Positions 1,489 through 23,928 of a DNA stretch of 64,000 nucleotides are shown here, piece by piece. The translations under genes were made by a program, and so were the position numbers. Source of the DNA: a virus. The notes beneath the pieces are model-generated. The model was not told the origin of the DNA, did no database searches, and saw only the letters and a program-made list of their open reading frames with translations. Every line of letters starts with the position of its first letter. The first letter of the stretch is position 1. The stretch is taken from positions 33,707 through 97,706 of the IMG/VR virus record IMGVR_UViG_3300045988_134682; one strand, given 5' to 3'.

Positions 1489-1570
1489 GCTGGTATGGTG
1501 GAACGGTATACACGGCGGACTTAAAATCCGCTGGCTCCGAGCCTTGCGGGTTCGAATCCCGCTACCAGCA
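1489..1570 (+). tRNA. tRNA-Leu(TAA): tRNA-Leu (anticodon TAA), type II with long variable arm
   Basis: Acceptor gctggta/taccagc, anticodon stem gcgga/tccgc with loop cttaaaa, variable hairpin ggctccgagcc, T-arm cgggttcgaatcccg. Confidence 0.85.
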
Positions 1571-1655
1571 CTAACTAAAAATCAATAGGAGGGATAATAT
1601 ATGTTCTATCATATTGGTACAGTCTTCTAAGTCCTTGGAAAGGAGGATTTAGATA

Positions 1656-1976
1656 ATGAGTAGAAGTTATAAAAAAACGCCTTGGGCTGGAGACAAAAAA
1701 GGCAAAATAAAAAAACGGATTGCAAATCAGACAGTTCGTTCTTGGCTGAAACAGCATCCAGATGTAAAACTTTCAAAAAGCGATTTTAAAAAAATTTATG
1801 AAACTTGGGATATTTGTGATTATGGATATAAAATGACTTGGGAAGAATATTGGGAAAGTGAAATTAGACATTATTATTGGTTTAAAATGAATTTTCCTGA
1901 AGCAAAGAAATCTAAGTATTGTAAGTATCCAGACAAAAAAAAACTTATAGACAGTGGTACAAATGGTATAAAATGA
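1656..1976 (+). CDS. hypothetical protein (basic, Trp/Tyr-rich)
   Basis: ORF with strong RBS ggaaaggagg 9 nt upstream. Lies between tRNA genes. Confidence 0.5.
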   Translation: MSRSYKKTPWAGDKKGKIKKRIANQTVRSWLKQHPDVKLSKSDFKKIYETWDICDYGYKMTWEEYWESEIRHYYWFKMNFPEAKKSKYCKYPDKKKLIDSGTNGIK

Positions 1977-2010
1977 AATGATTTGATTTTTATAAAATTT
2001 TTTGATATAA

Positions 2011-2021
2011 TAAATATAGAA
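2011..2021 (+). promoter_or_regulatory. extended -10 promoter (TGaTATAAT) likely driving tRNA-Gly
   Basis: ttgatataat followed by the conserved atatagaaagttaa motif seen downstream of other promoters in this window. Confidence 0.4.
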
Positions 2022-2090
2022 AGTTAAAGAACTTTCCTCTTTTTAAATTTCTCTTAAAAATAGCAAATGTTTTAAACATTTGCTAAATAT

Positions 2091-2162
2091 GCGGGTGTGG
2101 TGTAGTTGGCAACATACGTGCCTTCCAAGCATGTGTCACGGGTTCAAATCCCGTTACCCGCT
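2091..2162 (+). tRNA. tRNA-Gly(TCC): tRNA-Gly (anticodon TCC)
   Basis: Acceptor gcgggtg/tacccgc, anticodon stem cgtgc/gcatg with loop cttccaa, T-arm acgggttcaaatcccgt. Confidence 0.85.
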
Positions 2163-2473
2163 CTAAAGAGCCATAAACTGCAAAATAATTTATATCTTTA
2201 AATGGATATTATTAATAAAATTACATACATATTAAAATATGATGATGCAATGCTTCTCAGTAAACTAAATAGGCTGGGCTCTTGATATATAAAGCAGTAT
2301 TAGTAAAAAGAAGCATCTATTTAATTTTTAATGGTTTTATAATTTACATTAAGGCATAAACAGCAATCGTTGATTAAATTCAAGCAAATATTTTATTATA
2401 TGAGAATAAAACATATTTTTGAAAAAGGATGATTATTATGCCTTGAAAAAAGGGCATTTTTGCCCCTCTTTTT

Positions 2474-2546
2474 GTGCCAGTAGCTTAGTTGGCAAAGCAC
2501 CGGACTTTTAATCCGGTTACCGCGGGTTCAAGTCCCGCCTGGCACA
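2474..2546 (+). tRNA. tRNA-Lys(TTT): tRNA-Lys (anticodon TTT)
   Basis: Acceptor gtgccag/ctggcac, anticodon stem ccgga/tccgg with loop cttttaa, T-arm gcgggttcaagtcccgc. Confidence 0.85.
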
Positions 2547-2560
2547 CTTTTTAAAGGAGA

Positions 2561-3034
2561 ATGAATATGAAAATTATGACATCTTATTTTTATCAGATTC
2601 GATTTTTTAAACCTTATATGATTCCTCTTAGTACAGCTAAATGGGATCCTAAATGGTTTCATAAAAGCCAAGGTCAAGATTATCAATTTAAAGATAAAAA
2701 TGGAGTGTGGAATGGTTTAAGAGCAGAGCCATTTGCGCCAGGTCCTTTATGTGAAGGATTATGCTCTGGTCCAAAAGGATGTGCAAGTGCCGCAAATGAT
2801 TGTATGTTTTTAAAAACCTATAAAATGCAATTAGAGCATTTAGATTTTCAAGATATTCTTTCAAGGATTGAGTCTATTGGATATGCTGTTAAAGAGCAAG
2901 AAAAATTCCAAGAGGAACCAGTTGTAATCTTAATTGTGCATGAAGCTTTTGGAAATCATTGTTCAGAACGTGAGCCAATTCAAGAGTGGTTTGCGGAGAA
3001 TGGGTATCCGATAGAAGAGTTTCAGGCGGGATAG
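2561..3034 (+). CDS. hypothetical protein
   Basis: ORF with RBS aaaggag. Its stop codon overlaps the 5' end of tRNA-Cys by 10 nt. Confidence 0.5.
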   Translation: MNMKIMTSYFYQIRFFKPYMIPLSTAKWDPKWFHKSQGQDYQFKDKNGVWNGLRAEPFAPGPLCEGLCSGPKGCASAANDCMFLKTYKMQLEHLDFQDILSRIESIGYAVKEQEKFQEEPVVILIVHEAFGNHCSEREPIQEWFAENGYPIEEFQAG

Positions 3035-3098
3035 CCAAGTTGGTTAAGGCGGCGGTCTGCAAAACCGCTATTCAGGGGTTCGAGTCCCCTTCCCGCCT
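3025..3098 (+). tRNA. tRNA-Cys(GCA): tRNA-Cys (anticodon GCA)
   Basis: Acceptor ggcggga/tcccgcc, anticodon stem gcggt/accgc with loop ctgcaaa, T-arm aggggttcgagtcccct. Confidence 0.85.
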
Positions 3099-3112
3099 CT
3101 TAAAAATCTTAA

Positions 3113-8083: not shown

Positions 8084-9460
8084 ATGCGTACTTTAAAGAG
8101 AGTAGATAAGAATTTAGCGGGTAAATTGAAGATTCCTAATAATATAACTAATATTGATAGTTTTGCTTTTAGCGGATGTAACAATTTAATATCAATAGAT
8201 ATCCCAAATAGTGTAACTCGAATTGATTCTGGTGCTTTTCAAGGTTGCAAAAATTTAACATCAATTCATCTTTCTGATAATATAACTTCTATTAATTGGG
8301 GAACTTTTGATAGTTGTAACAATTTAATATCAATAGATATCCCAAATAGTGTAACTCGAATTGGGGAGGGCGCCTTTAATTATTGTACGAGCTTAACATC
8401 AGTAAATATTCCAGATAGTGTAATTAGTATTGATAAGTTGGCTTTTAGAAATTGTAAAAAATTAACCTCAATAAATATTCCAGATGGTGTAATTAGTATT
8501 GGAGAAAAAACTTTTGAAGACTGTGCAAATTTAACTTCAATAAATATTCCAGATGGTGTGACCAATATTGGACAAGAAGCTTTTAAAAATTGTGCAAATT
8601 TAACTTCAATAAATATTCCAGATGGTGTAACTATTATTGGAGGTTCAGCTTTTGCTGGTTGCACGAATTTAACTTCAATAAATATTCCAGATAGTACTTC
8701 TGAAATTTATGTAGGAGCATTTAAAGATTGTGTAAATTTAACTTCAATTCGTTTTCCAGATGGATCAAAGTATGTTGCTGAGAGAGTTTGTGAAGGATGT
8801 TCAAACTTAACTTCTGTTGTTATAGCTGATAGTGTTGAAACAATTTATAAGTATGCTTTTTCTAAATGTTCTAATTTAATATCTATAGATATTCCTAGTA
8901 ATATAACTAAAATTAGTTCATATGCTTTTAGTGACTGTACAAATTTAACTTCAATTACTATTCCTAATAGTGCTGTTGATATTGAAATACATGCTTTTGA
9001 AAATTTACCTTATATGCCAAAAGGAACTTATGAATATAATTCTATGAAATATAAAAATGGAATATTATGTACTGGTATTTGGGAAGATGATTTATATTAC
9101 AAAGATGGAATATTAGGTACTGGTATTTATGAAGATAAATATTACAAAGATGGAGTACGTAGTATATTATTTACTGGTATTTATAATGATAAATACTATG
9201 AAAATGGTATGCTTTTCACTGGTATTAAGGACGGCCAATACTATGAAAATGGCGTACTTGCTAAACCAGCATATTCAACAATTACAGAATCTAATGGTGT
9301 TTTAGAAGTAACAGGTGATTATAAAGAAATCGCAAATGATAATGGCACAACTTTATATCTTGAAACGCTTGATGTTACTGAATCTAATGACACTTTAACG
9401 ATTAATAGTAATTATGTAAAAGAAATCCCTAACGAAAAGGGAACAACATTATATATTTAA
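8084..9460 (+). CDS. receptor-binding/adhesin-like protein: BspA-type leucine-rich repeats plus choline-type cell-wall-binding repeats
   Basis: About 12 tandem 22-aa LRRs (NLTSINIPDGVTxIGxxAFxxC). C-terminal YYKDG..TGIYEDKYY repeats resemble CW_binding_1 repeats. Confidence 0.7.
   Translation: MRTLKRVDKNLAGKLKIPNNITNIDSFAFSGCNNLISIDIPNSVTRIDSGAFQGCKNLTSIHLSDNITSINWGTFDSCNNLISIDIPNSVTRIGEGAFNYCTSLTSVNIPDSVISIDKLAFRNCKKLTSINIPDGVISIGEKTFEDCANLTSINIPDGVTNIGQEAFKNCANLTSINIPDGVTIIGGSAFAGCTNLTSINIPDSTSEIYVGAFKDCVNLTSIRFPDGSKYVAERVCEGCSNLTSVVIADSVETIYKYAFSKCSNLISIDIPSNITKISSYAFSDCTNLTSITIPNSAVDIEIHAFENLPYMPKGTYEYNSMKYKNGILCTGIWEDDLYYKDGILGTGIYEDKYYKDGVRSILFTGIYNDKYYENGMLFTGIKDGQYYENGVLAKPAYSTITESNGVLEVTGDYKEIANDNGTTLYLETLDVTESNDTLTINSNYVKEIPNEKGTTLYI
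8144..8990 (+). repeat. tandem 66-nt (22-codon) LRR-encoding repeats
   Basis: Near-identical nucleotide repeats, for example 8196-8250 versus 8319-8373. They also create a spurious antisense ORF. Confidence 0.7.
9044..9259 (+). repeat. tandem cell-wall-binding-type repeats (about 48-54 nt units)
   Basis: At least four repeats of the GTGIxxDxYYKDG motif. Confidence 0.55.
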
Positions 9461-9894: not shown

Positions 9895-11550
9895 ATGTAT
9901 AAATTATCTATAATCACAATAAATAAAAATAATTCCATCGGATTAGAAAAAACAATTCAAAGTGTCATTAACCAAACGTATTTTGATAAAATAGAATATA
10001 TTATTATAGATGGGCTATCTACTGATAGCTCATCTTTTATAATAGACAAATACAAAGATTATTTTTCTTATTGGATTTCCGAAGAAGATAATGGTATTTA
10101 CGATGCAATGAATAAGGGTACTAATGCCGCCATAGGAAAGTATTTATTATTCTTAAATAGTGGAGATGTATTATATCATAATAAAATCATTGAAGAAATT
10201 TATTCAGAATTAAATACATATGATATTGTATATGGAGGCGTTGAATATGAAGGAGAAAAACATATTATTCGAATTCCTCCAGAAAAATTAGATTATATTT
10301 ATTTTTCAAAAAGACGATCAGTATTTCATCAGGGTGCTTTTATTTCTAAAAAATTATTATTAGAATTACCATACGACACTTCATATAAATTAATGGGAGA
10401 TGTAAATTTCTTTTTTAATGCAATATGTATAAAAAAAGCAACTTATAAAAGAATATTAAAAAAAATTGCTATTTTTGATATAAATGGGATATCTTCTAGA
10501 GAAGTTTATGCAAAAGAAAAAGAAAAAACTAAGATTCTATTAAATGGATTAAAATATATTGAAGACGAAAATATTAAACAAAATTTTCTAAAAAATATAA
10601 AAGTTTATAATCGACTTATTAATCAGCTTCCAATAGATTTTGTTTTTCCATATGTGGATAATTCCGATCCAAATTGGATTCAACAATATATGAACTGTTG
10701 TACTCGTCGTCGTATGAGATTTAATACAGAAGATGTTAGATATAGAGACTATGGCACTTTAAAATATCTTTTACGAGGAATTGATAAGTGTCTACCATGG
10801 ATTAGAAATATTTATATAATTGTTGAGCAAGAAAGTCAAGTGCCAAATTGGTTAAATAGAGATAATGTAAAAATAGTATATCACAAAGATATTATTCCAG
10901 AAGATTTTTTACCTACATATAATAGTGGAACTATTGAAATGTATTTAAAAAACATTCCTGAACTATCTGAATATTTTATATATGGAAATGATGATATGTT
11001 TCCTATTTCTTTAATGGATAAATCAAATTTTTTTGACGAAGATGGACTTCCTATTCTTTCAATGCAAAAATATCAAATGGAAGATAACTGGCGTCCTAAT
11101 ACATATCAATCTATGTTACTTAATTCTAATTTTATAGCTTATAATGATTTAAATCTTATAAGAGAAGATAATACAATAATAAAATGGAATCATACGATAA
11201 CTCCAATGAGGAAATCTACTTGGGAAGGATTATTTAATAGACATAGAGAAGAAATTGAAAAATCCTGTTCAACATTTAGATCTCCTAAAAATATAACTCA
11301 AGAATTAGTCAATTCATGGCATTATTTATCGGGTCAGTATAATAAAGATTATACATTAAAAGTGAATTATATTAGTATTCAAGATATAAAAAATGAAGAT
11401 ATCTTATATGAATCTATAAAAGATTATCAAGTTATTTGTATTAATGATGGTAATATAAATAAAGAAATTTTACCATTTGAAAAAATTAAAAGTATAATCT
11501 TGAATACATTTGAAAAATTATTCCCAGAAAAAAGTAAATATGAATTATAA
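9895..11550 (+). CDS. glycosyltransferase family 2 domain fused to a Stealth-family (hexose-1-phosphoryl transferase-like) domain
   Basis: N-terminus SIITINKNN...IEYIIIDGLSTD...EDNGIYDAMNKG matches GT2. Downstream IDFVFPYVDNSDPNWIQQY (Stealth CR2), RYRDYGTLKYLLRGIDKCLPWIRNIYIIV (CR3) and YGNDDMFPI (CR4). Confidence 0.65.
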   Translation: MYKLSIITINKNNSIGLEKTIQSVINQTYFDKIEYIIIDGLSTDSSSFIIDKYKDYFSYWISEEDNGIYDAMNKGTNAAIGKYLLFLNSGDVLYHNKIIEEIYSELNTYDIVYGGVEYEGEKHIIRIPPEKLDYIYFSKRRSVFHQGAFISKKLLLELPYDTSYKLMGDVNFFFNAICIKKATYKRILKKIAIFDINGISSREVYAKEKEKTKILLNGLKYIEDENIKQNFLKNIKVYNRLINQLPIDFVFPYVDNSDPNWIQQYMNCCTRRRMRFNTEDVRYRDYGTLKYLLRGIDKCLPWIRNIYIIVEQESQVPNWLNRDNVKIVYHKDIIPEDFLPTYNSGTIEMYLKNIPELSEYFIYGNDDMFPISLMDKSNFFDEDGLPILSMQKYQMEDNWRPNTYQSMLLNSNFIAYNDLNLIREDNTIIKWNHTITPMRKSTWEGLFNRHREEIEKSCSTFRSPKNITQELVNSWHYLSGQYNKDYTLKVNYISIQDIKNEDILYESIKDYQVICINDGNINKEILPFEKIKSIILNTFEKLFPEKSKYEL

Positions 11551-11565
11551 AAAAGGAGGCAAGAT

Positions 11566-12687
11566 ATGAAAGCACTAATTACTGGAATTAATGGGCAAGA
11601 TGGTTCATATCTTGCCGAGTTACTTTTATCGAAAAATTATGAAGTTCATGGAATTATTCGTAGAACATCGACGAACAATTTAAATAGAATTCAACATATT
11701 TTATCTAAAATTACTTTACATTATGGAGATTTATCAGATAGTTTGTCTTTGATAAAAATAATTCAAAATGTAAAGCCTGATGAAATATATAATCTTGCCG
11801 CACAATCAGATGTTAAGGTGTCATTCTCAACACCAGAATATACTGCTGATATTGATGCATTAGGAACTCTAAGATTACTAGAAGCGTGCAGAATTTGTGG
11901 AATAGATAAAACAGTTAAGTTTTATCAAGCCTCTACTTCTGAATTATTCGGAAAAGTAGAGGCTTTTCCACAATCCGAAACCACGCCATTTCATCCCTAT
12001 TCTCCATACGCAATTGCAAAACAATATTCGTATTGGATTGTAAAAGAATATAGAGAAGCATATAGAATGTTTGCGGTAAATGGTATTTTATTTAATCATG
12101 AATCTGAAAGACGTGGTGAAGAATTTGTAACTCGTAAGATAACAAAATCTGTAGCTCATATTATGAATGGCACACAAGACCATTTAGAATTAGGGAATTT
12201 AGATTCTTTAAGAGATTGGGGATATGCAAATGATTATGTTGAAGCAATGTGGTTAATGCTTCAAAACGATACCCCAGATGATTTTGTTATTGCTACTGCG
12301 GATGATGGCATTTTGATTAGTTCAAGAAATGATGCTGAAAAAATCAGAAATTTAATTCCACTTCATAGACCTAATTATGAAGAAAAAAGATGGGGCGCAT
12401 ATAAAGTTTTAAAACAAGATGATAATTATCTTGTTAAAGAATTAGAACTATTGCCTTATAAAGAAATATCTTATCAATCTCATAATTATAGAAAAGAAAC
12501 ATGGACTATTGTTCAAGGGTCTGGAGAAGTAATTATTGATGGTATTACTCAACAGGTAAAGTCTGGTGATATAGTCAATATAGAAATAAAACAAAAGCAT
12601 AAACTTATTGCTGGAGAAAATGGGATTAAAATTTTTGAAGTGCAAATAGGAGATGTGCTAGAAGAGTCTGATATTATTAGATATTAA
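11566..12687 (+). CDS. GDP-mannose 4,6-dehydratase-like SDR (truncated) fused to C-terminal cupin domain
   Basis: N-terminus [31 protein letters not shown] matches Gmd and runs to DDFVIATA. The last 110 aa or so ([30 protein letters not shown]) resemble a cupin beta-barrel. Confidence 0.65.
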
Positions 12688-13617: not shown

Positions 13618-13929
13618 ATGGCAGCATCTAAAAAAATTTTAGATGAAAATGGATTATTAGCATTATGGCATCAAATTGAAAATAATTTTATTTCATCTGA
13701 GAATATTGAACAAATTGTTTATGCAATTGAGTCAATTAAAGCAGATAAAGATTCTCCTGAATTTACAGGAATTCCAATTGCTCCAACCGCAAGTCCAAAT
13801 ACAAATACCACACAAATTGCAACTACTGAATTTGTTAATACTGCTATTGCTGAATTAAGTGCATTATTTTCTTCTTACAAAGAGCAAGTAGATAATGCTT
13901 TAGCAGAGATAAAAAATAAAATAGGCTAA
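13618..13929 (+). CDS. hypothetical structural protein with shared N-terminal motif
   Basis: RBS aaaaggagg. N-terminus MAASKKILDENGLLALWHQIE. Confidence 0.5.
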   Translation: MAASKKILDENGLLALWHQIENNFISSENIEQIVYAIESIKADKDSPEFTGIPIAPTASPNTNTTQIATTEFVNTAIAELSALFSSYKEQVDNALAEIKNKIG

Positions 13930-13967
13930 ATAGATATTTTATATCTATTTAGCCTATTTTATTTTTT
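13924..13967 (+). terminator. rho-independent terminator
   Basis: ggctaaatagatat/atatctatttagcc stem followed by a T-rich run. Overlaps the stop codon. Confidence 0.65.
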
Positions 13968-13968
13968 A

Positions 13969-13997
13969 TTGATTTTTTATAAAAAATATATTATAAT
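13969..13997 (+). promoter_or_regulatory. conserved-family promoter
   Basis: ttgatt 13969-13974, 17-nt spacer, tataat 13992-13997, then atatatagaaaatgag. Confidence 0.55.
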
Positions 13998-14030: not shown

Positions 14031-14840
14031 ATGAAAGATATTAGCTATTATTGGGCAGATAAATCTCAAAGAGCAATTATTGCACAAGAGCATACTAAGC
14101 AAATGAATGAGCAATTTGCTAGTGAGATTGCGGAAAGTGTAATGAATAGTAAAATTTATAGCAAAGATTTTAAAGCAACAACGCCCGCAAGAAATTTAGA
14201 GGAAGCAGATATTGCTCTTGATGCTGTTGGAAGTGTTGAAGCTATTGTAGCTTGCGATTCTACAGATGGAAAAGTTGCGGTTCTTAATTTCGCTTCATAT
14301 AAAAATCCTGGCGGAATGTTTATTAATGGGTCTCGTGCTCAGGAAGAATGTCTGTGCCATGAATCTTTTCTTTACAACGTATTAAGCCAAATTCCAAATT
14401 ATTATGATTGGAATGAAAAACACAAGAATCGTGCTTTATATGAGAATAGAGCAATTTATTCTCCAAATATCAGATTTGAGCATTCTGGCATTGAAAAATA
14501 CTGCGATGTAATTACTTGCGCCGCACCTAATTTTACTGCCGCTGCAAAGTATTGCAACGTAGATAGAAAAGAAAATAAAAAAGTTCTTGAATCAAGAATT
14601 CGATTCGTTTTTGAAGTAGCAAAACAGAATCAGGTTGATACTCTCATTTTAGGGGCTTTTGGATGCGGAGTGTTTGGACAGAATGCAGATGATGTTGCAG
14701 AAATTTTTATCAATCTGTTAGTTACAGATTATGCAACTGAATTTAAGAAAGTAATTTTCGCAATTCCGATTATCAATAATGATTCTATCAATTACAGTAA
14801 ATTTCAGAATATGTTTGATGAATTGTTAGAGGAGAATTAA
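14031..14840 (+). CDS. PARG-like macrodomain protein (DUF2263 / bacterial-type poly(ADP-ribose) glycohydrolase family)
   Basis: Signature NFASYKNPGGMFINGSRAQEECLC (GGG-x6-8-QEE) and glycine-rich ILGAFGCGVFGQN diphosphate-binding loop. Confidence 0.6.
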   Translation: MKDISYYWADKSQRAIIAQEHTKQMNEQFASEIAESVMNSKIYSKDFKATTPARNLEEADIALDAVGSVEAIVACDSTDGKVAVLNFASYKNPGGMFINGSRAQEECLCHESFLYNVLSQIPNYYDWNEKHKNRALYENRAIYSPNIRFEHSGIEKYCDVITCAAPNFTAAAKYCNVDRKENKKVLESRIRFVFEVAKQNQVDTLILGAFGCGVFGQNADDVAEIFINLLVTDYATEFKKVIFAIPIINNDSINYSKFQNMFDELLEEN

Positions 14841-14841
14841 T

Positions 14842-15051
14842 ATGAATTCTTTTACTATCACAATTACAAATTGCCTTGATTGTCCAGACCATGATGTTCG
14901 TCCTATTTACACTCCAGATTCTTGGGACCATGAGGAAGGATGTTATTGTAAACTTGCTAAAGATGTAAATGGATATGACAAATTAGTTGCAGGAGACGAT
15001 TGGCATTTAAGAAGATATACTGACATTCCAGATTGGTGTCCAAAATTATGA
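14842..15051 (+). CDS. small Cys-rich hypothetical protein
   Basis: CLDCPDH...CYC...WCP pattern. Start overlaps the upstream stop. Confidence 0.4.
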   Translation: MNSFTITITNCLDCPDHDVRPIYTPDSWDHEEGCYCKLAKDVNGYDKLVAGDDWHLRRYTDIPDWCPKL

Positions 15052-15356
15052 CGTATATTTCTGAATATTTTTATAGTAATTGCTTAATCGAAGCTATTAA
15101 AGCTAAGATTAAGCATCCTATAAAAGTAAAAATAAAATATATTCCAGCAAGATTAAATGAAGTATTTTGTCCGCATTTAATGTGGCATGATGGTGAATAT
15201 ACTTATGATTTTTGGGCTTGCGGGCATTTAAAGCCATATCAAATTTTATGGCATAAAGGTAAGATAAGAAAAAACGAATATGATTATTATGATAAATGTA
15301 TAAAAACTTTAAAAGAATGGAAAGAAAGAGGTAAACAAGATGCCGGTAAGAGATGA
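15033..15356 (+). CDS. hypothetical protein
   Basis: ORF overlapping both neighbours (operonic). Confidence 0.4.
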   Translation: MVSKIMTYISEYFYSNCLIEAIKAKIKHPIKVKIKYIPARLNEVFCPHLMWHDGEYTYDFWACGHLKPYQILWHKGKIRKNEYDYYDKCIKTLKEWKERGKQDAGKR

Positions 15357-16215
15357 TTTAGGTACTCGTATGAAAACCTTTTATGAAAATATTCCTAAAA
15401 CTCGACTTATGAGAAGAGTTCCAGTAGCAATTAGGCTGGACGGCAAGGCGTTTCATACTTTTACAAGAGGTTTTCAAAAGCCATTTGATTTTGTGCTAAT
15501 GGATACAATGCAACAAACAATGAAATATTTATGTGAAAATATTCAAGGATGTGTATTGGGATATACTCAGTCTGATGAGATTACATTGATTCTTGTTGAT
15601 TATAAGAAATTAAATTCTGCTGCATGGTTTGATTATGAAGTTCAGAAAATGTGCAGTATCGCAGCAAGTATGGCTACAATGGCGTTTAATAGATTTTTCA
15701 TGTATGAATATGAAGAGTTTAATAGATGGGTTAATGAAGGAAATCCAACAGATGAAGATAGACGATTAAATGATATTTATTATGATGCGATGTGTAAAGG
15801 TGCAATGTTTGATGCACGTTGTTTCAATATTCCAAAAGAAGAAGTAACTAACCTCATTTATTGGCGGCAACTTGATGCAACAAGAAATAGTATTCAAATG
15901 GTTGGACAAGCTCATTTTTCACATGATGAGCTTCAAGATAAAACTTGTAATATGATTCAAGATATGTTAATGACCAAGTATGGCATTAACTGGAATGATT
16001 TTACAACACCATGTAAACGAGGCACTGCATGTATTAGAATTGGAAAAAAAGTAACTGAAAATATCAAAAGAGAACCTCAACCTTTTGGAGAAGATAAAGT
16101 TACAACTACAATTATTGAAGAAAGACCTATCTGGGTTATTGACAAGAATATGCCTATTTTAAAAGGCGAAGACCGCAAATATGTTGATGATTTAATTTAC
16201 ATAGGAGAAGAATAA
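15340..16215 (+). CDS. Thg1-like protein (tRNA-His guanylyltransferase family, 3'-5' nucleotidyltransferase)
   Basis: VPVAIRLDGKAFHTFTRGFQKPFD...VLGYTQSDEITLIL aligns with the Thg1/TLP core motifs (RxDG+xFHxF, KPxD, YGQSDE). Confidence 0.75.
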   Translation: MPVRDDLGTRMKTFYENIPKTRLMRRVPVAIRLDGKAFHTFTRGFQKPFDFVLMDTMQQTMKYLCENIQGCVLGYTQSDEITLILVDYKKLNSAAWFDYEVQKMCSIAASMATMAFNRFFMYEYEEFNRWVNEGNPTDEDRRLNDIYYDAMCKGAMFDARCFNIPKEEVTNLIYWRQLDATRNSIQMVGQAHFSHDELQDKTCNMIQDMLMTKYGINWNDFTTPCKRGTACIRIGKKVTENIKREPQPFGEDKVTTTIIEERPIWVIDKNMPILKGEDRKYVDDLIYIGEE

Positions 16216-16368
16216 ATGATAAGAGGATATAGCATTTCTGAAGAGGATATTGATAGAGTAATGCCTTTTGTAAGAGGTGTGATTCATGAACTTGAAGTCA
16301 GTATTTCTATGTATTATTGCGGATATACAGGAGAAATTTCTTTGGGTATTTGTGAGGAGGAATGCTAA
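16216..16368 (+). CDS. small hypothetical protein (50 aa)
   Basis: Start adjacent to the upstream stop. Overlaps the next start. Confidence 0.3.
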   Translation: MIRGYSISEEDIDRVMPFVRGVIHELEVSISMYYCGYTGEISLGICEEEC

Positions 16369-16796
16369 TGGGGTGTAATTATGATATTACAAAAGTGAAT
16401 AAATTATTTAATTTGGCAGTTCAATATTATCCTAAGAAAAAATTAGTTCATGCTTTGCGGGTTGCTGAATATGCGACCGCAAAAGCCAGTGCTTTAAAAA
16501 TTGATACAGTAAAGACTTATATGATCGCCTTAGCGCACGATTTGTTAGAGGATACTGAATGTCCAAAAGAAGATTTAATGTCTATTTTAGGTATAGAGAG
16601 TTATAATTCAGTAGTTCTTTTAACTAAAGATGCACAAGAAAAATATGAAGATTATATTCATAAGATTCTTGATGCAGGAGATGACTATGCTTTTGTTGTT
16701 AAACAGGCAGATATGAAAGACCATATGACTTTAACTGATACACTTACAGAAAAATTGCTGGATAAATATATTCCTGTATTGCATTATTTCTTATAA
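16362..16796 (+). CDS. HD-domain phosphohydrolase (YfbR/DatZ-like dNTPase or Mesh1/SpoT-like hydrolase)
   Basis: H...HALRVA...ALAHDLLEDT motif (H, HD, D metal ligands). Confidence 0.55.
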   Translation: MLMGCNYDITKVNKLFNLAVQYYPKKKLVHALRVAEYATAKASALKIDTVKTYMIALAHDLLEDTECPKEDLMSILGIESYNSVVLLTKDAQEKYEDYIHKILDAGDDYAFVVKQADMKDHMTLTDTLTEKLLDKYIPVLHYFL

Positions 16797-16810
16797 GGAA
16801 GGATTTATGT

Positions 16811-17167
16811 ATGATTTTTAACTGGAAAGAGAAAATGTTTTTAATTATTCTTTTATGTATATTATTTACATCTTTAAATATGTTTTTTCGACCTAAATCT
16901 GCGGAAAAGATGCAAATTTTTCCATCTTATGATTGGGGAAGTGAAGAAGAAGAAATTTTAGCTTATATTTCTGCAAATACAAATGGAACTGATAAAGATA
17001 AACAACAAGCTGTTATTGATTGTTTAGATTATGTATGGGACGCAAATCATCATTTTAATATTTCTGAATATGCTTCTGCGAAATATAAATTTTATGTTGA
17101 ACCAACCCAGCATGATTATGAACTTGTAAGATTGGTTAAAAAGGGACAATGGGCAACCGATGATTAA
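16811..17167 (+). CDS. hypothetical membrane/secreted protein
   Basis: N-terminal hydrophobic helix MFLIILLCILFTSLNMFF. Confidence 0.4.
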   Translation: MIFNWKEKMFLIILLCILFTSLNMFFRPKSAEKMQIFPSYDWGSEEEEILAYISANTNGTDKDKQQAVIDCLDYVWDANHHFNISEYASAKYKFYVEPTQHDYELVRLVKKGQWATDD

Positions 17168-17199
17168 AGGAGAAAGTTTAAATACTTTCTCCTTTTTTT
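17167..17199 (+). terminator. rho-independent terminator
   Basis: ggagaaagt/actttctcc stem followed by T7. Confidence 0.65.
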
Positions 17200-17226
17200 G
17201 ATTTTTTATTAAAAATTTATTATAAT
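17198..17226 (+). promoter_or_regulatory. conserved-family promoter
   Basis: ttgatt 17198-17203, 17-nt spacer, tataat 17221-17226, then atatatagaaaattaaaggaaggtg. Confidence 0.55.
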
Positions 17227-17258
17227 ATATATAGAAAATTAAAGGAAGGTGAGAAAGC

Positions 17259-18080
17259 ATGGCAGATCTTAATACAATAACTAAAGCGGCTAGTGGTATT
17301 CAAGAGCATTATCTTGAATCTAAACAATACTTTGCTAAGAATAATATTGTAGGTATTTTTCTACAAGGTAGTCAGAATTATGGTCTTGAAACTGAAGATT
17401 CTGATATTGATACAAAACTTATTACCACTCCAACATTAAATGATTTAATTTATAACCGAAAACCTATGTCTACAACTCATTTTAGGGCTAATGGGGAACA
17501 TATTGATTTTAAAGATATTAGGCTTATGTTTGATACTTTCCGCAAACAGAATCTAAATTTTATTGAGATTCTGTTCACTAATTATAAAATCATCAATCCA
17601 ATGTATGAAAAAGAGTGGAATAAATTGATTGCGGAAAATGAAGTTATTGCACATTATAATCCTTATTTCGCAGTAAAAGCTATGTCTGGCATTGCTCTTG
17701 GAAAAAGATATGCTCTTACTAAAGAAACAGAAGCTCATAAAGGAACCTTTGAAAAGTTTAATTATGACCCAAAACAGCTTTATCAGCTTGTGAGAATTGA
17801 TGAATATCTCGATAAATATATTGCTGGAGCGCCATATAAAGAATGTTTGTGTCCAGCTAACCCGCAATATTTAAAAGACATTAAAACTGGTCTTTATTCA
17901 AAAGAAGAAGCTATTAAAGTTGCAGATGAACATATGACTCATATTGATAAAATTTGTGCCCCATATACAAAAGATTCTGAATTTAACTACATTGATGAAG
18001 AAGCTGAAAATCTTCTGCAAGAAGTCCAAGCGGAAATTATGAAGAAAAGTATTGCTTTTGAATTGGAGGAAAAGAAATGA
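17259..18080 (+). CDS. Pol-beta-superfamily nucleotidyltransferase-domain protein
   Basis: GSQNYGLETEDSDID (GS-x10-DxD) motif near the N-terminus. Helical C-terminal domain. Confidence 0.5.
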   Translation: MADLNTITKAASGIQEHYLESKQYFAKNNIVGIFLQGSQNYGLETEDSDIDTKLITTPTLNDLIYNRKPMSTTHFRANGEHIDFKDIRLMFDTFRKQNLNFIEILFTNYKIINPMYEKEWNKLIAENEVIAHYNPYFAVKAMSGIALGKRYALTKETEAHKGTFEKFNYDPKQLYQLVRIDEYLDKYIAGAPYKECLCPANPQYLKDIKTGLYSKEEAIKVADEHMTHIDKICAPYTKDSEFNYIDEEAENLLQEVQAEIMKKSIAFELEEKK

Positions 18081-18865
18081 TTAAACAGTTTTTTGTAACA
18101 GGAGATACACATGGCTGTATGGATCGTTTTACATGGCTTGAAATACAAAATCCAAAAGAGACTGGTATTATTATCTTAGGAGATGCAGGTGTAAATTTTT
18201 ATAAAAGTGCGGCAAGGCAACATGATATTAAGATGCAACTTGAACAATATGGATGTACATTTTATTTGGTAAGGGGGAATCATGAGGCTCGTCCAGAAGA
18301 TGTTAAAGGCATTGAAGAGGTTTGGGATGATGATGTTGCGAATTATGTTTTCATTGAACCCGGTTATCCTCATATCCATTATCTTATGGATGGCTCTAAT
18401 TATGATTTTCTTGGTCATAATACACTTGTAATAGGTGGAGCTTATTCTGTGGATAAATGGTATAGACTTGAAAATCATTATACTTGGTATCCAAACGAAC
18501 AATTAACAGAAGCAGAAATGCAGGCTATTGAAGCAATGTATGCGGGACAAAGTTTTGATTTTGTTTTTACTCATACTTGTCCATTAAGCTGGGAACCAAC
18601 TGACTTATTTTTATCTATGATTGACCAGTCTACTGTAGATGATTCTATGGAAGTTTGGCTTGATTCTTTTAAAGATAAGATTAATTGGGGCGTTTGGCTG
18701 TTTGGTCACTTTCACGCAGATAGAATGGAGCGCCCGCATGTTGAACAATATTTTAAAGCAATCGAAGATTTAGAAGAGATATGGAAAAGATGGAATGATC
18801 CAAATTATTTACTTCCAACTTATTTTAGAAAATCTCCTAATTTTAATAAAGGAAAAACTGAATAA
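18077..18865 (+). CDS. calcineurin-like metallophosphoesterase
   Basis: Motifs GDTHG, GDAG, GNHE and GHFH. Confidence 0.65.
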   Translation: MIKQFFVTGDTHGCMDRFTWLEIQNPKETGIIILGDAGVNFYKSAARQHDIKMQLEQYGCTFYLVRGNHEARPEDVKGIEEVWDDDVANYVFIEPGYPHIHYLMDGSNYDFLGHNTLVIGGAYSVDKWYRLENHYTWYPNEQLTEAEMQAIEAMYAGQSFDFVFTHTCPLSWEPTDLFLSMIDQSTVDDSMEVWLDSFKDKINWGVWLFGHFHADRMERPHVEQYFKAIEDLEEIWKRWNDPNYLLPTYFRKSPNFNKGKTE

Positions 18866-18880
18866 GTTTTTCCTTTATTG
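18851..18880 (+). terminator. rho-independent terminator
   Basis: ggaaaaact...agtttttcc stem followed by a T-run. Confidence 0.55.
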
Positions 18881-18906
18881 ATTTTTTATTAAAATTATAA
18901 TATAAT
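18878..18906 (+). promoter_or_regulatory. conserved-family promoter
   Basis: ttgatt 18878-18883, 17-nt spacer, tataat 18901-18906, then atatatagaaagttaaggaaagg. Confidence 0.55.
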
Positions 18907-18939
18907 ATATATAGAAAGTTAAGGAAAGGATAAAAAGAA

Positions 18940-19122
18940 ATGATTAAAATTCTTAAATCTGGTAACAAATATGGTTATCGGTTAAAATGTTCAAAATGTC
19001 ATTGTGTATTTATTGCATCACAAGATGAATGTCGAAATTCTATTTTTTCATATTTTAGATGTCCAGATTGTGGAAGTATTGTTGAAAAGAAACTTTATAC
19101 TAAAAAAGTAAGACTTGACTAA
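18940..19122 (+). CDS. zinc-ribbon hypothetical protein
   Basis: CSKCHC...CPDCGS pattern. Confidence 0.45.
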   Translation: MIKILKSGNKYGYRLKCSKCHCVFIASQDECRNSIFSYFRCPDCGSIVEKKLYTKKVRLD

Positions 19123-19140
19123 AGAGAGGATTGATACATT

Positions 19141-19959
19141 ATGAAATATTTTATTGACTTTGAAGCAATGCAGTTTTCCAATTATATTATTTCTGTTGGA
19201 TGTGTTCGAGAAGATGGAAAAGAATTTTATTCTCTTGTACATACCCCAGAGAATACAAATAAGAATGTTTCTAAGTTTATCACTGATTTAACAGGTATTA
19301 CTACAGAAATGGTTGAGGCAGCTCCTTCTCCAGAAGAGGTATTCAATGAGTTTTTTGATTTTTGTTTTGAAGATTGCGGCGATGACATTCCTGAATTTTA
19401 TTGTTATGGGAATTGTGATACAGATTTTATCAAAGCAACCTTCCGCAAAACAAATAGTTTTAAAGCAAAAGCAATTCTTGGTTATATGAATACAGATATG
19501 AAAGATTTTGCTCCTGCTGTTAAGGTTCATTTTGGCTTAATCAAACTGATTAACCTCGCTAAAGTTTGCGAATATTTTAGAGGAGAAGAGGTTGTTCAGA
19601 CTCATAATTCTCTTGACGATGCAAAGATGTTAAAAGAAGTTTATGAAGGCTGTAAAAATGAAAAAGCTTCTGAAGTAGATGCAAATGTCTTTATGGAGTA
19701 TAAGGAAATTACAACCGACCAGATTGAATATGAAGATACTCGTTTTGATGTTTTTTGTTGCCCTACTAAAAATTTTGAAGAAGAAAGAACTAAGAAATTT
19801 GAAAATCTTAAAGAAGCAGTTGAATACGTTAAATCATATGATAAGAGCATGAGAAATAATCCGACTGTAAATGTCCACAATATTGCCAAAAGGATTAAAA
19901 AATCCTATAATACAAAGAAACAGTACAACTTCTACTATTGGAAATTTGAGGTGAAATAA
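19141..19959 (+). CDS. DEDDh 3'-5' exonuclease (DnaQ/epsilon-like), candidate proofreading subunit or RNA exonuclease
   Basis: Exo I FIDFEA, Exo II ...YGNCDTDF region and Exo III HNSLDDAKML motifs. Confidence 0.6.
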   Translation: MKYFIDFEAMQFSNYIISVGCVREDGKEFYSLVHTPENTNKNVSKFITDLTGITTEMVEAAPSPEEVFNEFFDFCFEDCGDDIPEFYCYGNCDTDFIKATFRKTNSFKAKAILGYMNTDMKDFAPAVKVHFGLIKLINLAKVCEYFRGEEVVQTHNSLDDAKMLKEVYEGCKNEKASEVDANVFMEYKEITTDQIEYEDTRFDVFCCPTKNFEEERTKKFENLKEAVEYVKSYDKSMRNNPTVNVHNIAKRIKKSYNTKKQYNFYYWKFEVK

Positions 19960-20288
19960 TGATTAAACTTTGGATTGATGATATGCGGCCCGCGCCAGAT
20001 GAATCTTATATTTGGATTAAGAGTGTTTGGGATGCAGAAATGTGTCTTACTACTCTTGTAAGACCAGAAGGAGACATTCTTGAAGTTAATGAAATTAATT
20101 TAGATCATGATGCTGGTGAATATTATGAAAAAGGCGGAGATTATATTAAAATTCTTGATTGGCTTGAATGTTGCCAAAGACTGCGTGGCTGGCATATTTA
20201 TGCAACTTTTAAATTTCATAGTATGAATCCTGTTGGAGTTCAAAATATGAAAAGAGTTTGTAAGGAAGCTGGTTGGAGAATTGAGTAA
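19959..20288 (+). CDS. hypothetical protein
   Basis: Coupled ORF. Confidence 0.4.
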   Translation: MIKLWIDDMRPAPDESYIWIKSVWDAEMCLTTLVRPEGDILEVNEINLDHDAGEYYEKGGDYIKILDWLECCQRLRGWHIYATFKFHSMNPVGVQNMKRVCKEAGWRIE

Positions 20289-20674
20289 TGGAATATTGGA
20301 GAAGACAAAGATTAAAAGAAATTATAAAACACATTGTAGTTGTGGTACTTATTGTCGCAGCTTGTATTGGAATTATAACTGGGATAATAAAGTATTATGA
20401 CCAATTTTATTTAAAAACTGAAGTAAGAGCAGTTGAAGTTATAAATAAAGAAGATGATGTACATCATTCTTTTGTAATGAGCGGGAAAGTTCTTATTCCT
20501 ATTACAAATCATTCATATTATTTATATGGCGTAAATAATGAAAAAGTAAGCGTTTCTTCTTCTATATTTAATGCGGTTAAAGAAGGAGATAAGATACAGG
20601 TAAAATGTACCTATGTTTACTATAAAAAAGATGATTCTTTACATAAAATAGAGTATAAATATTTAGAGGAATAA
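20288..20674 (+). CDS. hypothetical membrane protein
   Basis: TM helix IVVVVLIVAACIGIITGII. Confidence 0.4.
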   Translation: MEYWRRQRLKEIIKHIVVVVLIVAACIGIITGIIKYYDQFYLKTEVRAVEVINKEDDVHHSFVMSGKVLIPITNHSYYLYGVNNEKVSVSSSIFNAVKEGDKIQVKCTYVYYKKDDSLHKIEYKYLEE

Positions 20675-20677
20675 AAT

Positions 20678-21253
20678 ATGAAAATTAAAAACTTTTTTGG
20701 GCACTTAAAAACGGTATGTAAACATAAATATTGGGTAGGAAAATACTGCTTTAAAATTGGTCTTTATAAGCAGGGAATTACACACGATTTATCCAAATTT
20801 TCTCCTGTTGAATTTTGGGAAGGTGTCAAATATTGGCAGGGGACTCGTTCTCCGATAGATGCTTGTAAAGAGGAAAATGGAATGTCCTTTGCTTGGCAGC
20901 ATCATAAAGGTCGGAATCGACACCATTACGAGTACTGGTTCGATAACATTGATAAAGGCGGCACCGCACTCCCAATGCCAGATAAGTATCTTTTGGAGCT
21001 ACTCTGTGATTATTTAGGTGCGGGACATGCTTATATGGGAAAAAATTTTACATATCAAGAAGAATATAAGTGGTGGCAGAATAAGATTAAGAATCCTATT
21101 GCTATGCATCCTGCGACTAAAATTTTTATAGATAAAGTATTATCTCGTTTAGCATGGAGAGAAGAGCATAATGTTGGATATAAGGCACTTTTAAATAAGA
21201 AAAATCTCATTAAGATTTATCACGAATGTTTGAAAGAAACAGATCTTAATTGA
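20678..21253 (+). CDS. hypothetical His/Trp-rich protein
   Basis: ORF; no recognisable motif. Confidence 0.4.
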   Translation: MKIKNFFGHLKTVCKHKYWVGKYCFKIGLYKQGITHDLSKFSPVEFWEGVKYWQGTRSPIDACKEENGMSFAWQHHKGRNRHHYEYWFDNIDKGGTALPMPDKYLLELLCDYLGAGHAYMGKNFTYQEEYKWWQNKIKNPIAMHPATKIFIDKVLSRLAWREEHNVGYKALLNKKNLIKIYHECLKETDLN

Positions 21254-21278
21254 TTTACTTTTAAAATTTTTATATAAT
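21249..21278 (+). promoter_or_regulatory. sigma-70-like promoter
   Basis: ttgatt 21249-21254, 18-nt spacer, tataat 21273-21278. Confidence 0.45.
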
Positions 21279-21310
21279 ATATTTACAATAAATAAAGGAG
21301 ATTGATAGGT

Positions 21311-22492
21311 ATGCTGAATGAAAAGAAAGAAAGAGAGCTTGCTTATGTTGTCAAAGTTGATGAGATTCGTCCTATTGAAGGAGCTGACAGAGTAGAAGTA
21401 GCTATCGTAAATGGTTGGCATATTATGGTTCGTAAAGACCAATTTAAGCCAGGCGATTTAGCTGTTTACTTTGAGATTGATTCTAAAGTTCCAGCAGAAG
21501 AGCCATTTATGTTCCTTGAGCCGAAACATTTTAAAATTAAAACTCAGAAATATTTTAAAGGCACTGTAATTTCTCAGGGTCTGCTTATGAGCTTTGAAGA
21601 CTTCGGTTGGGAAAAGGACGCTTATAAACTTGGTGACTTTTTAACTCAGAAATTAAAAGTAACTTATGCAGTTGAAGAAGATAATGCTCGTAAAGCATCT
21701 TCTGTGGATAAGTATAAAAAGATGGCTCAGAGACATGGAAAATTGTTCTCTCATCAGCCTTTTAGATGGTTAATGCGTAGAACTTGGGGTAAGAAAATTT
21801 TATTCATGTTCTTCGGTAAAACTTCTGATAAGAAAACCGGATGGCCGACATGGGTTTCTAAAACAGATGAAGAGCGTGTACAGAATATGCCTTGGATTCT
21901 TGAGAATAAAAATCCATGGGTTGCAACTGAAAAAATTGATGGTACTTCTACTACCTTTACAATGAAAAGAATTAAGACTCGTTTCTTGAAGAAAGAAAAA
22001 TTTGAGTTTTATATCTGTTCTCGTAACGTAGTATTTGATAGACCAGATAAGTCTTGCTTTTATGATACTAATGTTTACGTTGAGATGGCTGAAAAGTATA
22101 ATGTTGAAGCAACTCTCCAGGAGATTCTCAGAAATCGTCCAGACCTTGAATGGGTAACACTTCAGGGTGAAACTTATGGTCAGGGTATCCAGAAGAGAGA
22201 ATACTCTCTGAAAGAGCATAACTTTATGGGATTTAACTTCATTACTTCTGCGGAAGGTCGTTGGGATTCTAAACGGGCAAGCAAGTTGATGATGGAGTAT
22301 GGTATTCCGTGGGTGCCGATTGTTGATGAAAACTTTATCCTTCCAGATACAGTTGATGAACTTCTTGCTATTGCTACCGGTGATTCTGTGATAGATGGAA
22401 AGATGCGTGAAGGTCTTGTATTCCGTTCTCAGGATGGCGTTCAGTCCTTTAAGGCTGTTTCCAATGAATTTCTACTGAAGTTCCATTCTTAA
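21311..22492 (+). CDS. ATP-dependent RNA ligase-like nucleotidyltransferase (Rnl5/DraRnl-like: N-terminal OB domain plus ligase NTase)
   Basis: Motif I ATEKIDGTS (KxDG), motif IV EGLVFR, motif V SFKAVSNEFLLK. About 200-aa N-terminal OB-like domain. RBS aaaggag 11 nt upstream of ATG 21311. Confidence 0.6.
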   Translation: MLNEKKERELAYVVKVDEIRPIEGADRVEVAIVNGWHIMVRKDQFKPGDLAVYFEIDSKVPAEEPFMFLEPKHFKIKTQKYFKGTVISQGLLMSFEDFGWEKDAYKLGDFLTQKLKVTYAVEEDNARKASSVDKYKKMAQRHGKLFSHQPFRWLMRRTWGKKILFMFFGKTSDKKTGWPTWVSKTDEERVQNMPWILENKNPWVATEKIDGTSTTFTMKRIKTRFLKKEKFEFYICSRNVVFDRPDKSCFYDTNVYVEMAEKYNVEATLQEILRNRPDLEWVTLQGETYGQGIQKREYSLKEHNFMGFNFITSAEGRWDSKRASKLMMEYGIPWVPIVDENFILPDTVDELLAIATGDSVIDGKMREGLVFRSQDGVQSFKAVSNEFLLKFHS

Positions 22493-23466: not shown

Positions 23467-23928
23467 ATGACACTTGATACAGTTATGAAAGAGATGGTTA
23501 CTGCAATGAAGGCTAAAGACAAGGCTCGAAAAGATATTATTTCTAGTCTTGTTGATGCTATTAAAAAGGCGGCTATTGATAAAAATTGCCGAAATAACAT
23601 TCCAGAAGACATGGTTGATGCAGTTATCTTAAAAGAGCAAAAAACCGTACAGGAAATGATTGATACCTGCCCTGCCGCAAGAATAGACCTTTTGGAATCT
23701 TATAAGTATAGACTTGAAGTAATTAAAGAATTTGCTCCAACTCTTATGACAGAGGATGAAATTCGATCTTTTATTAATGAAGAGTTAATTGAGCTTACTC
23801 AGGTCGTTACTGAACCTATTGGACCAAAAATGAAGGGTATGGTTATGAAAAATATTATGCCTAAACTTAAAGGCAAAGCAGATGGAAAACTTATCAATAA
23901 AGTTCTTACTGAACTTTTGAACCAGTAG
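23467..23928 (+). CDS. GatB/YqeY-domain protein
   Basis: MKEMVTAMKAKDKARKDII...LTEDEIRSFINEE...GMVMKNIMPKLKGKADGKLINKVLTELL closely mirrors the YqeY family pattern. Confidence 0.6.
   Translation: MTLDTVMKEMVTAMKAKDKARKDIISSLVDAIKKAAIDKNCRNNIPEDMVDAVILKEQKTVQEMIDTCPAARIDLLESYKYRLEVIKEFAPTLMTEDEIRSFINEELIELTQVVTEPIGPKMKGMVMKNIMPKLKGKADGKLINKVLTELLNQ

Follow-up and report, generated by a model that had tools for sequence, protein, structure and literature searches.

The window analysed here is a stretch of 64,000 nucleotides (nt) of viral DNA, positions 33,707 to 97,706 of IMG/VR record IMGVR_UViG_3300045988_134682, and our subject is a gene within it that encodes a Thg1-like protein (TLP), a member of the tRNA-His guanylyltransferase family of reverse (3'-5') polymerases. 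The virus is a human-gut phage of ~195 kb, and its TLP is probably a bacterial-type enzyme that rebuilds 5'-truncated tRNAs, forming the 5' arm of a toolkit for RNA repair and counter-defence. The basis of this reading, all of it from the present analysis, is family membership, an intact active site, the fold, purifying selection and gene context. Positions are those of the window, and related contigs are named by our own handles (L001 and the like).

The open reading frame (ORF) spans exactly 15340..16215 on the plus strand, with an ATG, 291 codons and then a stop, and its start overlaps the 3' end of the preceding ORF (15033-15356) by 17 nt. The earlier note, made from the sequence alone, had placed a Thg1-like gene here, and this assignment is borne out by profile, sequence, residue and fold evidence. 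The similarity is significant and far beyond chance: the Pfam profile Thg1 (PF04446, cut-off 29.2 bits) matches at 98.8 bits (E 2.9e-28) over profile positions 3-130 of 130, and PHROG 4717, "tRNA-His guanylyltransferase", matches residues 4-284 over positions 2-237 of 250 (E 2.4e-83). In HMMER alignments, the structure of the Bacillus thuringiensis TLP (BtTLP, 4kgk) is matched at E 4.9e-52, and the human, yeast, Candida and archaeal Thg1/TLP structures at 5e-8 to 2e-6, the human THG1 value being 5e-8. The second Pfam domain, Thg1C (PF14413), reaches 19.7 bits, which is under its cut-off of 26.3 bits, yet residues 155-233 align with BtTLP residues 126-204. No NCBIfam model matched the protein.

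The two peptides on which the earlier note had relied, RLDGKAFHTFTRGFQKPFD and GYTQSDEITLIL, are residues 32-50 and 74-85, and the two carboxylate motifs that it had claimed are kept in the alignment. The metal ligands are D34 (BtTLP D30, human D29) and D79/E80 (BtTLP D75/E76, human D76/E77). Ten residues, E16, R32, D34, H39, K47, D79, E80, R160, R176 and M187, are identical to functionally tested or nucleotide-contacting residues of BtTLP, where those other than the ligands are numbered E12, R28, H35, K43, R131, R147 and M158; the roles assigned to them are those reported for BtTLP (PMC3701042). By alignment with the BtTLP and human enzymes, R32, H39, K103, R160 and R176 would contact nucleotides, and by alignment with BtTLP, E16 would brace the arginines and K47 would position the activating ATP. 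Across 75 diverse relatives, E16, R32, D34, D79, E80, R160 and R176 are each at least 90% conserved, and K103, at the position of human K95, is invariant. Residue 187 is Met, as is BtTLP M158, where eukaryotic Thg1 has Asn (N161). Residues 181-187 (TRNSIQM) stand in place of the eukaryotic HINNLYN motif, for which BtTLP has SKNSISM.

An AlphaFold2 model built on the alignment of 75 relatives (predicted local distance difference test score 95.4; predicted template modelling score 0.89) contains the palm-domain fold together with the C-terminal half found in solved Thg1/TLP structures. Using Foldseek, its best counterpart was 4kgm (E 1.9e-26; template modelling (TM) score 0.93 relative to the target; 33-36% identity), followed by the human, Candida, yeast and archaeal Thg1/TLP structures, all with E below 1e-11. 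Because of the retained residues, Met187, TRNSIQM and the model fold, we consider the protein a bacterial-type TLP with an intact predicted active site, closer to bacterial TLPs than to eukaryotic Thg1 (Foldseek identity 33-36% against 17-19%) and, by homology, catalytically competent.

Three groups of solved relatives provide the comparison. BtTLP (PDB 4KGK/4KGM; Hyde et al. 2013, PMC3701042) is the best of these, with equivalent carboxylates and nucleotide site; the phage TLP differs in being virus-encoded, in being known here from sequence and model, and in being 46 residues longer, with a ~25-residue helical insertion (125-154) and a longer C-terminal beta-hairpin and helix. The archaeal TLP of Methanosarcina acetivorans (PDB 5AXK-5AXN; Kimura et al. 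2016, PMC4820378) has the same fold (Foldseek E 2e-15) and the same two-step templated 3'-5' addition chemistry, and no other TLP has been solved in complex with tRNA, but identity is about 22% and the phage protein lies nearer to the bacterial TLPs. Eukaryotic Thg1 (human 3OTB, yeast 5XOX, Candida 3WBZ) shares the palm fold and the carboxylates at 17-20% identity, and departs from the phage protein in the HINNLYN motif and the Asn just described.

The family name and most phage annotations assume that such an enzyme matures tRNA-His, and the phage does carry many tRNA genes. The four at the start of the window are the last of a long array, ten further ones lie upstream of the window in the source contig, and the phage family holds 30 or more (arrays at L001 60-12931 and L014 5539-12966, and also in L013), tRNA-His being among those of sister contigs. 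None of the phage tRNA genes examined encodes CCA. A tmRNA gene was seen in L007 and L008, two more distant phages that bear a TLP.

If the enzyme served maturation, it would add G-1 to the phage tRNA-His with C73 as template, and so secure charging by histidyl-tRNA synthetase whenever RNase P cuts at +1. In vitro, templated G-1 addition is within the reach of both archaeal and bacterial TLPs. The tRNA-His was examined in two sister contigs that share the gene block and were located by exact DNA search, rather than in the window's own genome; in both, tRNA-His(GTG) has C73, the correct template, and it begins only 4 nt after the preceding tRNA-Ser, so that 5' processing could be imprecise. However, G-1 is encoded in both genes opposite C73, which is the bacterial arrangement in which RNase P leaves the encoded G-1 in place (PMC3701042). 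Post-transcriptional addition is therefore not required and would be a back-up at most. Eukaryotic Thg1 adds a non-templated G-1 opposite A73; the two sister contigs have no tRNA-His of that kind, with A73 and lacking an encoded G-1, and the phage TLP lacks the HINNLYN motif tied to non-templated addition. We consider maturation unlikely as the main task of the enzyme.

A substrate other than tRNA is less probable again. The enzyme might extend or modify transcript 5' ends in a capping-like manner, take part in priming, or make a small nucleotide signal or decoy, which would echo its distant relatives GGDEF, Cas10 and mCpol; Thg1 palm domains have been unified evolutionarily with GGDEF and CRISPR polymerases (PMC12657218). 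The weak tail of the Foldseek results reaches Cas10/Cmr2, tRNA-linked synteny is not conserved across phage families, and the hypervariable insertion and exchangeable C-terminal module could retarget substrate choice. Against this, the cyclase and Cas10 fold matches are non-significant (E about 0.1, TM below 0.3), all TLP-specific residues for nucleotide binding and activation are retained along with the C-terminal half that aligns with BtTLP, and no PADLOC defence model matched the protein.

The history of the gene bears on whether it has a function at all. In the model, helices 101-133 and 138-153 form a hairpin with the insertion at its tip, and among the 75 relatives this region is between 17 and 58 residues long. 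The insertion module has a near-exact match in the distant phages L006 and L007 and is different in the close relative L003, while the C-terminal module is shared with L003, L009 and L012 and is of another type in L006 and L007. The TLP is the most divergent sizeable gene of its syntenic block (~84% identity, as compared to 88-98% for its neighbours, the shortened ORF at 16216 aside), and frameshifts interrupt alleles in sister phages, as one might expect of a decaying or dispensable accessory gene. However, in the window the allele is one uninterrupted ORF that keeps every catalytic residue, the extra divergence sits in exchangeable modules, unlike random decay, and the ratio of nonsynonymous to synonymous substitution rates (dN/dS) of the main body is 0.10-0.18 against relatives and stays at 0.1-0.2 even where dS is saturated. 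Since divergence is modular rather than diffuse and dN/dS is low, the comparisons indicate a mosaic gene, functional and shuffled by recombination, and decay is very improbable.

Last and least probable, the enzyme might replace mismatched 5' nucleotides of phage tRNAs, as amoebal TLPs do, and although protist mitochondria offer a precedent and the phage tRNA genes are densely packed, this idea is largely refuted and we rejected it: acceptor-stem pairs 1-3 are Watson-Crick or G-U in 31 of 32 tRNA genes from L001 and L014 (in the exception, an initiator-like tRNA-Met, the register of the stem is uncertain), which leaves editing without a target.

With maturation and editing set aside, and given the homology to BtTLP, 5'-end repair is the best-supported role, and repair of 5'-damaged tRNAs the most reasonable one to propose; bacterial TLPs prefer the templated repair of 5'-truncated tRNAs over tRNA-His maturation (PMC3701042). 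By homology, the enzyme would activate a 5'-monophosphate RNA end with ATP or GTP and then lengthen it in the 3'-5' direction, with the opposite (3') strand of the acceptor stem as template, whereby 5'-truncated tRNAs would be rebuilt. It would be the 5'-end arm of a toolkit that includes a PARG-like macro-domain protein and an alarmone-hydrolase-like HD protein, apparently in one transcription unit with it, and, further downstream, a nucleotidyltransferase, phosphoesterases, a cyclic-phosphate-processing receiver domain (cREC), an Rnl5-type ligase and a kinase/phosphoesterase pair. Such a toolkit could keep the phage's 30 or more tRNAs, plus those of the host, usable during infection. The choice of tRNA 5' ends as substrate, the origin of the damage and the cooperation with neighbouring genes are what we infer here from the observations.

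The genes from 14031 to 22492 are all on the plus strand and overlap or lie a few bases apart. Boundaries of transcription units were drawn from a consensus scan for terminator-like hairpins and promoter-like sites, and the predicted TLP unit (14031-17167) contains the PARG/macro gene, two small ORFs, the TLP, a 50-codon ORF, the gene for the 144-residue HD hydrolase and a 118-codon ORF. The nearest named relatives of the HD protein are small alarmone (RelA/SpoT-type) and (p)ppApp hydrolases, with weak E-values of ~1e-4; a homologue, 35% identical, lies 2.5 kb from the TLP in a prophage of Eubacterium plexicaudatum. In the next unit, neither the Pol-beta nucleotidyltransferase nor the metallophosphoesterase has solved relatives by sequence, so their roles stay generic. 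Farther along, the kinase has a weak match to 4gp7/4jst, the kinase domain of Clostridium thermocellum Pnkp, and together with the adjoining phosphoesterase it is a candidate split Pnkp-like end-healing pair. A long AT-rich hairpin followed directly by the same promoter-like motif recurs as punctuation in this DNA, where terminator-like sites number 16 against 3.8 in shuffled sequence, about 4-fold. The counterpart of the 50-codon ORF is absent from L012.

The packing of repair-type genes into one strand-consistent, tight block and the tRNA-richness of the phage family speak for a shared repair function. The earlier note had set the gene next to other RNA-repair enzymes, which holds in that the Rnl5-like ligase, cREC, phosphoesterases and P-loop kinase are in the region, the ligase, cREC and the kinase/phosphoesterase pair at 4-15 kb downstream; its statement that the gene sits next to phage tRNA genes was loose, the nearest (tRNA-Cys, 3025-3099) being 12.2 kb upstream. 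Synteny of a 9-kb block around the TLP extends to five complete sister loci and to L009 and L012, the TLP reading frame being split in the last two. Outside the immediate family, this synteny is absent (L006, L007, L008, L010, Fusobacterium phage Fnu1, Bacillus phage Bcp1 and Staphylococcus phage PMBT8), so synteny across phage families was rejected. PADLOC matched no defence model to the TLP, macro, HD, nucleotidyltransferase, metallophosphoesterase, cREC or ligase genes, and the block was rejected as a known anti-phage defence system, a generic DEDDh match of the exonuclease being the only one.

Several observations weigh against the proposed role. In L006, L007, L010, Fnu1, Bcp1 and PMBT8 the TLP lies among unrelated or hypothetical genes, with no repair neighbourhood in the last three, and unrelated genes flank it in the more distant phages whose TLP is 66-77% identical; functional coupling of the TLP to its neighbours is weakly supported because the neighbourhood is not conserved beyond the close family. 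The RNA ligase, clearest of the repair enzymes, is 5.1 kb downstream, and the nearest tRNA gene is at the distance just given. The operon boundaries are predicted from consensus scans only, and the HD and kinase assignments come with weak E-values. The analysis identified no host nuclease that would shorten tRNAs at the 5' side in infected cells, and the literature searched on phage TLPs holds annotation-level mentions only, with no biochemical test found.

A different form of the gene is found in sister phages. In eight contigs (seven from IMG/VR and one from a Clostridia metagenome-assembled genome (MAG)) the TLP orthologue is split at the same codon, and one of the split IMG/VR sequences recurs in an isolate genome, that of E. 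plexicaudatum ASF492 (AQFT02000004.1; L020/L025). A host among the Clostridia/Lachnospiraceae is hinted at by these finds. The first part, which we call ORF0, has its own AAAGGAG ribosome-binding site, runs for 31-33 codons and ends in CGT CTT TGA C. The +1 frame then continues from the catalytic Asp (GAC GGN AAR GCN TTY CAY, that is, DGKAFH) for 226-269 codons without a stop. The 10-mer CGTCTTTGAC is invariant in three diverged lineages, while flanking and wobble positions vary; in-frame alleles, including that of the window, read AGG CTG GAC, AGA ATT GAT or CGT ATT GAC. Purifying selection is seen on both sides of the site (dN/dS 0.16-0.34 at dS above 1, where synonymous divergence is saturated). 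An internal restart could not yield an active enzyme, because D34, H39 and K47 are encoded between the site and the first downstream Met.

The sister alleles are thus read as a candidate programmed +1 ribosomal frameshift. The sequence CUU UGA C is the heptamer of the programmed +1 frameshift of RF2 (prfB); the heptanucleotide is identical in the two, and a slip from CUU to UUU would restore the downstream frame. Unlike prfB, the sister alleles have no Shine-Dalgarno-like stimulator 3 nt upstream of the site, and they are linked to a homing endonuclease. Two other genome matches to the frameshift pattern, in Nitrospirota and Chitinophagaceae MAGs, were discarded as in-frame FDGKAFHTYT repeats of unrelated proteins. 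We found no paper linking Thg1 to programmed frameshifting.

Directly upstream of ORF0, a LAGLIDADG homing-endonuclease gene is present in six of the eight split-allele contigs. These endonucleases fall into two lineages that are 53% identical to each other, and none was found adjoining an in-frame TLP allele; the window allele has neither the frameshift site nor the endonuclease gene. In L015, the endonuclease gene is directly preceded by what remains of an earlier TLP N-terminus (1801-1869), 91% identical to residues 4-26 of the window protein. This remnant and the endonuclease linkage suggest intron-less homing into the 5' end of the TLP gene. The best reading of these sequences is a homing cassette that brings a replacement 5' end, with programmed +1 frameshifting as the means by which the new allele is then translated; the additional T of the split alleles may protect them against cleavage by the endonuclease.

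The two strands can be joined in a more ambitious and tentative scheme, which we would sooner doubt than accept: the TLP would belong to an operon that restores tRNA acceptor ends hit by host immunity, and the sister alleles would depend on a prfB-type +1 frameshift. The PARG-like macro protein would remove ADP-ribose, the HD protein would remove pyrophosphate from the 3'-CCA end (as left by CapRel/toxSAS-type toxins), and the TLP would refill 5' nucleotides; in sister phages, a LAGLIDADG cassette would have replaced the 5' end of the gene, so that the enzyme is made only by way of the CUU UGA C frameshift at the catalytic Asp. Were this true, TLP synthesis in those phages would be coupled to the state of translation termination, and the allele may also be immune to the endonuclease.

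Table 1. Coordinates of the TLP gene, its parts, the surrounding features of the window and the related features of sister contigs.
Feature	Position	Strand	Evidence or remark
Last four tRNA genes (Leu, Gly, Lys, Cys) of a long array continuing upstream of the window	1489..3099	+	tRNA gene prediction
Terminator-like hairpin, then promoter-like TTGATT-N17-TATAAT; predicted start of TLP unit	13916..13997	+	Consensus scan
Microbial-type PARG / macro-domain protein (ADP-ribose hydrolase family); first gene of TLP unit	14031..14840	+	PF10021 E 7.6e-30; TIGR02452 E 3.8e-60; bacterial PARG 3sig E 2.6e-23
Ribosome-binding site AAGAGG (Shine-Dalgarno-like), 8 nt 5' of TLP ATG	15326..15331	+	Sequence read directly
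TLP gene, 291 residues, intact, one frame	15340..16215	+	ORF; Pfam PF04446; 4kgk; PHROG 4717; AlphaFold2 model; Foldseek
GAC codon of D34, first metal-binding Asp (BtTLP D30, human D29); AGG CTG precedes, in frame	15439..15441	+	Alignments
Codons of S78-D79-E80, second carboxylate motif (BtTLP D75/E76; human S75-D76-E77)	15571..15579	+	Alignments; at least 90% conserved in 75 relatives
Helical insertion, residues 125-154, ~25 residues extra vs BtTLP; hypervariable exchangeable module	15712..15801	+	Gap between HMMER stretches vs 4kgk; model
C-terminal beta-hairpin and helix, residues 229-291; second exchangeable module	16024..16212	+	Model; module comparison among relatives
50-residue ORF directly after TLP	16216-16368	+	~100 residues in most sister phages; central ~52 residues gone here, in frame
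144-residue HD-domain hydrolase in TLP unit	16362..16796	+	PF01966 E 1.4e-4; phrog_990 E 6.4e-17; RelA/SpoT HD E 3.6e-4; 7smg (p)ppApp hydrolase E 1.6e-4
Terminator-like hairpin with TTGATT-N17-TATAAT after it; TLP unit predicted to end and next unit to begin here	17166..17226	+	Consensus scan
Pol-beta-superfamily nucleotidyltransferase, next unit	17259-18080	+	PF18765 E 3.6e-4; phrog_388 E 3.9e-18
Calcineurin-like metallophosphoesterase, next unit	18077-18865	+	PF00149 E 2.7e-8; phrog_1649 E 1.4e-22
Terminator-like hairpin, then TTGATT-N17-TATAAT	18843-18906		Consensus scan
DEDD 3'-5' exonuclease	19141-19959	+	Profile matches; generic DEDDh match only in PADLOC
cREC, cyclic-phosphate-processing receiver domain	19959-20288	+	PF20274 E 6.4e-13
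DUF5662 protein	20678-21253	+	Profile match
Promoter-like TTGATT-N17-TATAAT	21250-21278		Consensus scan
Rnl5-type (Naegleria NgrRnl / DRB0094-like) RNA ligase, N-terminal OB domain	21302..22492	+	TIGR02306 E 3.9e-27; PF21189, PF09414; 5cot E 2.4e-28
YqeY/GatB-like protein	23467-23928		Profile match
P-loop AAA_33 kinase	29804-30388	+	PF13671 E 7.6e-17; weak match 4gp7/4jst E 3e-4
Metallophos_2 phosphoesterase after AAA_33 kinase	30385-30936	+	PF12850 E 3e-8
Split TLP orthologues in sister contigs	L009 ~9995-10859; L012 ~9995-10898; L015 2978-3830; L018 ~3494-4310; L019 433-1210; L020/L025; L021; L023
Free-standing LAGLIDADG genes (PF03161) in sister contigs	L012 8950-9975; L015 1883-2959; L025 2085-3161; also L018, L020, L021, L023	- (L025)

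Elsewhere, the window holds the part of a large-phage genome that serves replication and nucleotide metabolism, with topoisomerase II, NAD-dependent ligase, DnaB, RecJ, DNA polymerase, Dda helicase and PhoH. The last tRNA gene is followed directly by a gene (3358-4881) for a 507-residue protein with DUF2828 and DUF7788 (vWA-like) domains, which might be related to TROVE/Ro-type RNA-binding modules. Upstream of the TLP block (8084-9460 and 9895-12687) there are a BspA-type leucine-rich-repeat protein, a Stealth/GT2 glycosyltransferase and a GDP-mannose 4,6-dehydratase-cupin fusion, surface-glycan genes that are unusual for a phage; the dehydratase gene gave the sole megablast match of the window to GenBank phages (Synechococcus phage S-SCSM1). 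A divergent adenylosuccinate-synthetase homologue is located at 28094-29272 (PF00709 E 1.3e-18, only about 1e-4 to solved PurA) and again at L006 6294-7394, the two genes upstream of it being conserved as well; it might act as a PurZ-like enzyme in a 2-aminoadenine pathway.

No close genome was found in a DNA-level search of GenBank phages. The identical protein is already public, on a 194,726-bp human-gut metagenome contig (ENA ERZ919639, k127_115637) where JGI names it "tRNA(His) 5'-end guanylyltransferase". Relatives at 82-99% identity are found on many contigs of about 181-201 kb, one cluster on 137 contigs, and IMG/VR holds sister phages of 181-196 kb. A search of the whole library returned 5,395 homologues at E <=1e-3. 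Using tblastn, homologues were found in 162 GenBank phage records, with hosts including Bacillus, Prevotella, Caulobacter, Mycobacterium and Fusobacterium; most of the 40 records listed of these are annotated as tRNA-His guanylyltransferase. Among the matches listed, no GenBank phage homologue is more than 57% identical, and cultured members are 39-45% identical, the top one at 45%.

Members of PHROG 4717 include Bacillus phages Bc431v3 (gp143) and Bcp1 (gp164), phage G (gp378), Fusobacterium phage Fnu1 (gp147) and Staphylococcus phage PMBT8. Like the window phage, these are large and tRNA-rich, and a repair role has been proposed in print; unlike them, the window lineage consists of uncultured ~195-kb human-gut phages with a different gene neighbourhood. 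The Thg1 gene of Bc431v3 was remarked on in 2013 (PMC3601020), and a 2021 comparative-genomics review of jumbo phages described Thg1 as the 5' nucleotide restoration enzyme of phage RNA-repair systems (PMC7824862). With the family catalogued, the records numerous and the JGI name in place, the novelty that the earlier note implied was overstated: the window TLP is real, correctly identified and reasonably interpreted, but it is one more member of a catalogued phage gene family and for that reason adds little alone.

What gives the gene its value is an operon hypothesis that can be tested, together with the biology of frameshifting and homing in its sister alleles. Apparent co-transcription with the macro/PARG-like and HD genes suggests a wider theme, the cleaning of modified or damaged tRNA acceptor ends, and the shared unit of TLP, ADP-ribose-hydrolase-like and alarmone-hydrolase-like genes gives the idea of tRNA acceptor-end repair a concrete form. 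Reverse (3'-5') polymerases are a rare class; for asking what bacterial-type TLPs do in the cell, phage copies offer a clean genetic setting, and this one belongs to an abundant human-gut phage lineage, as the 137-contig cluster of one relative indicates. The frameshifted, endonuclease-linked alleles may add a new example both of programmed +1 frameshifting and of homing, without an intron, into a catalytic-site codon.

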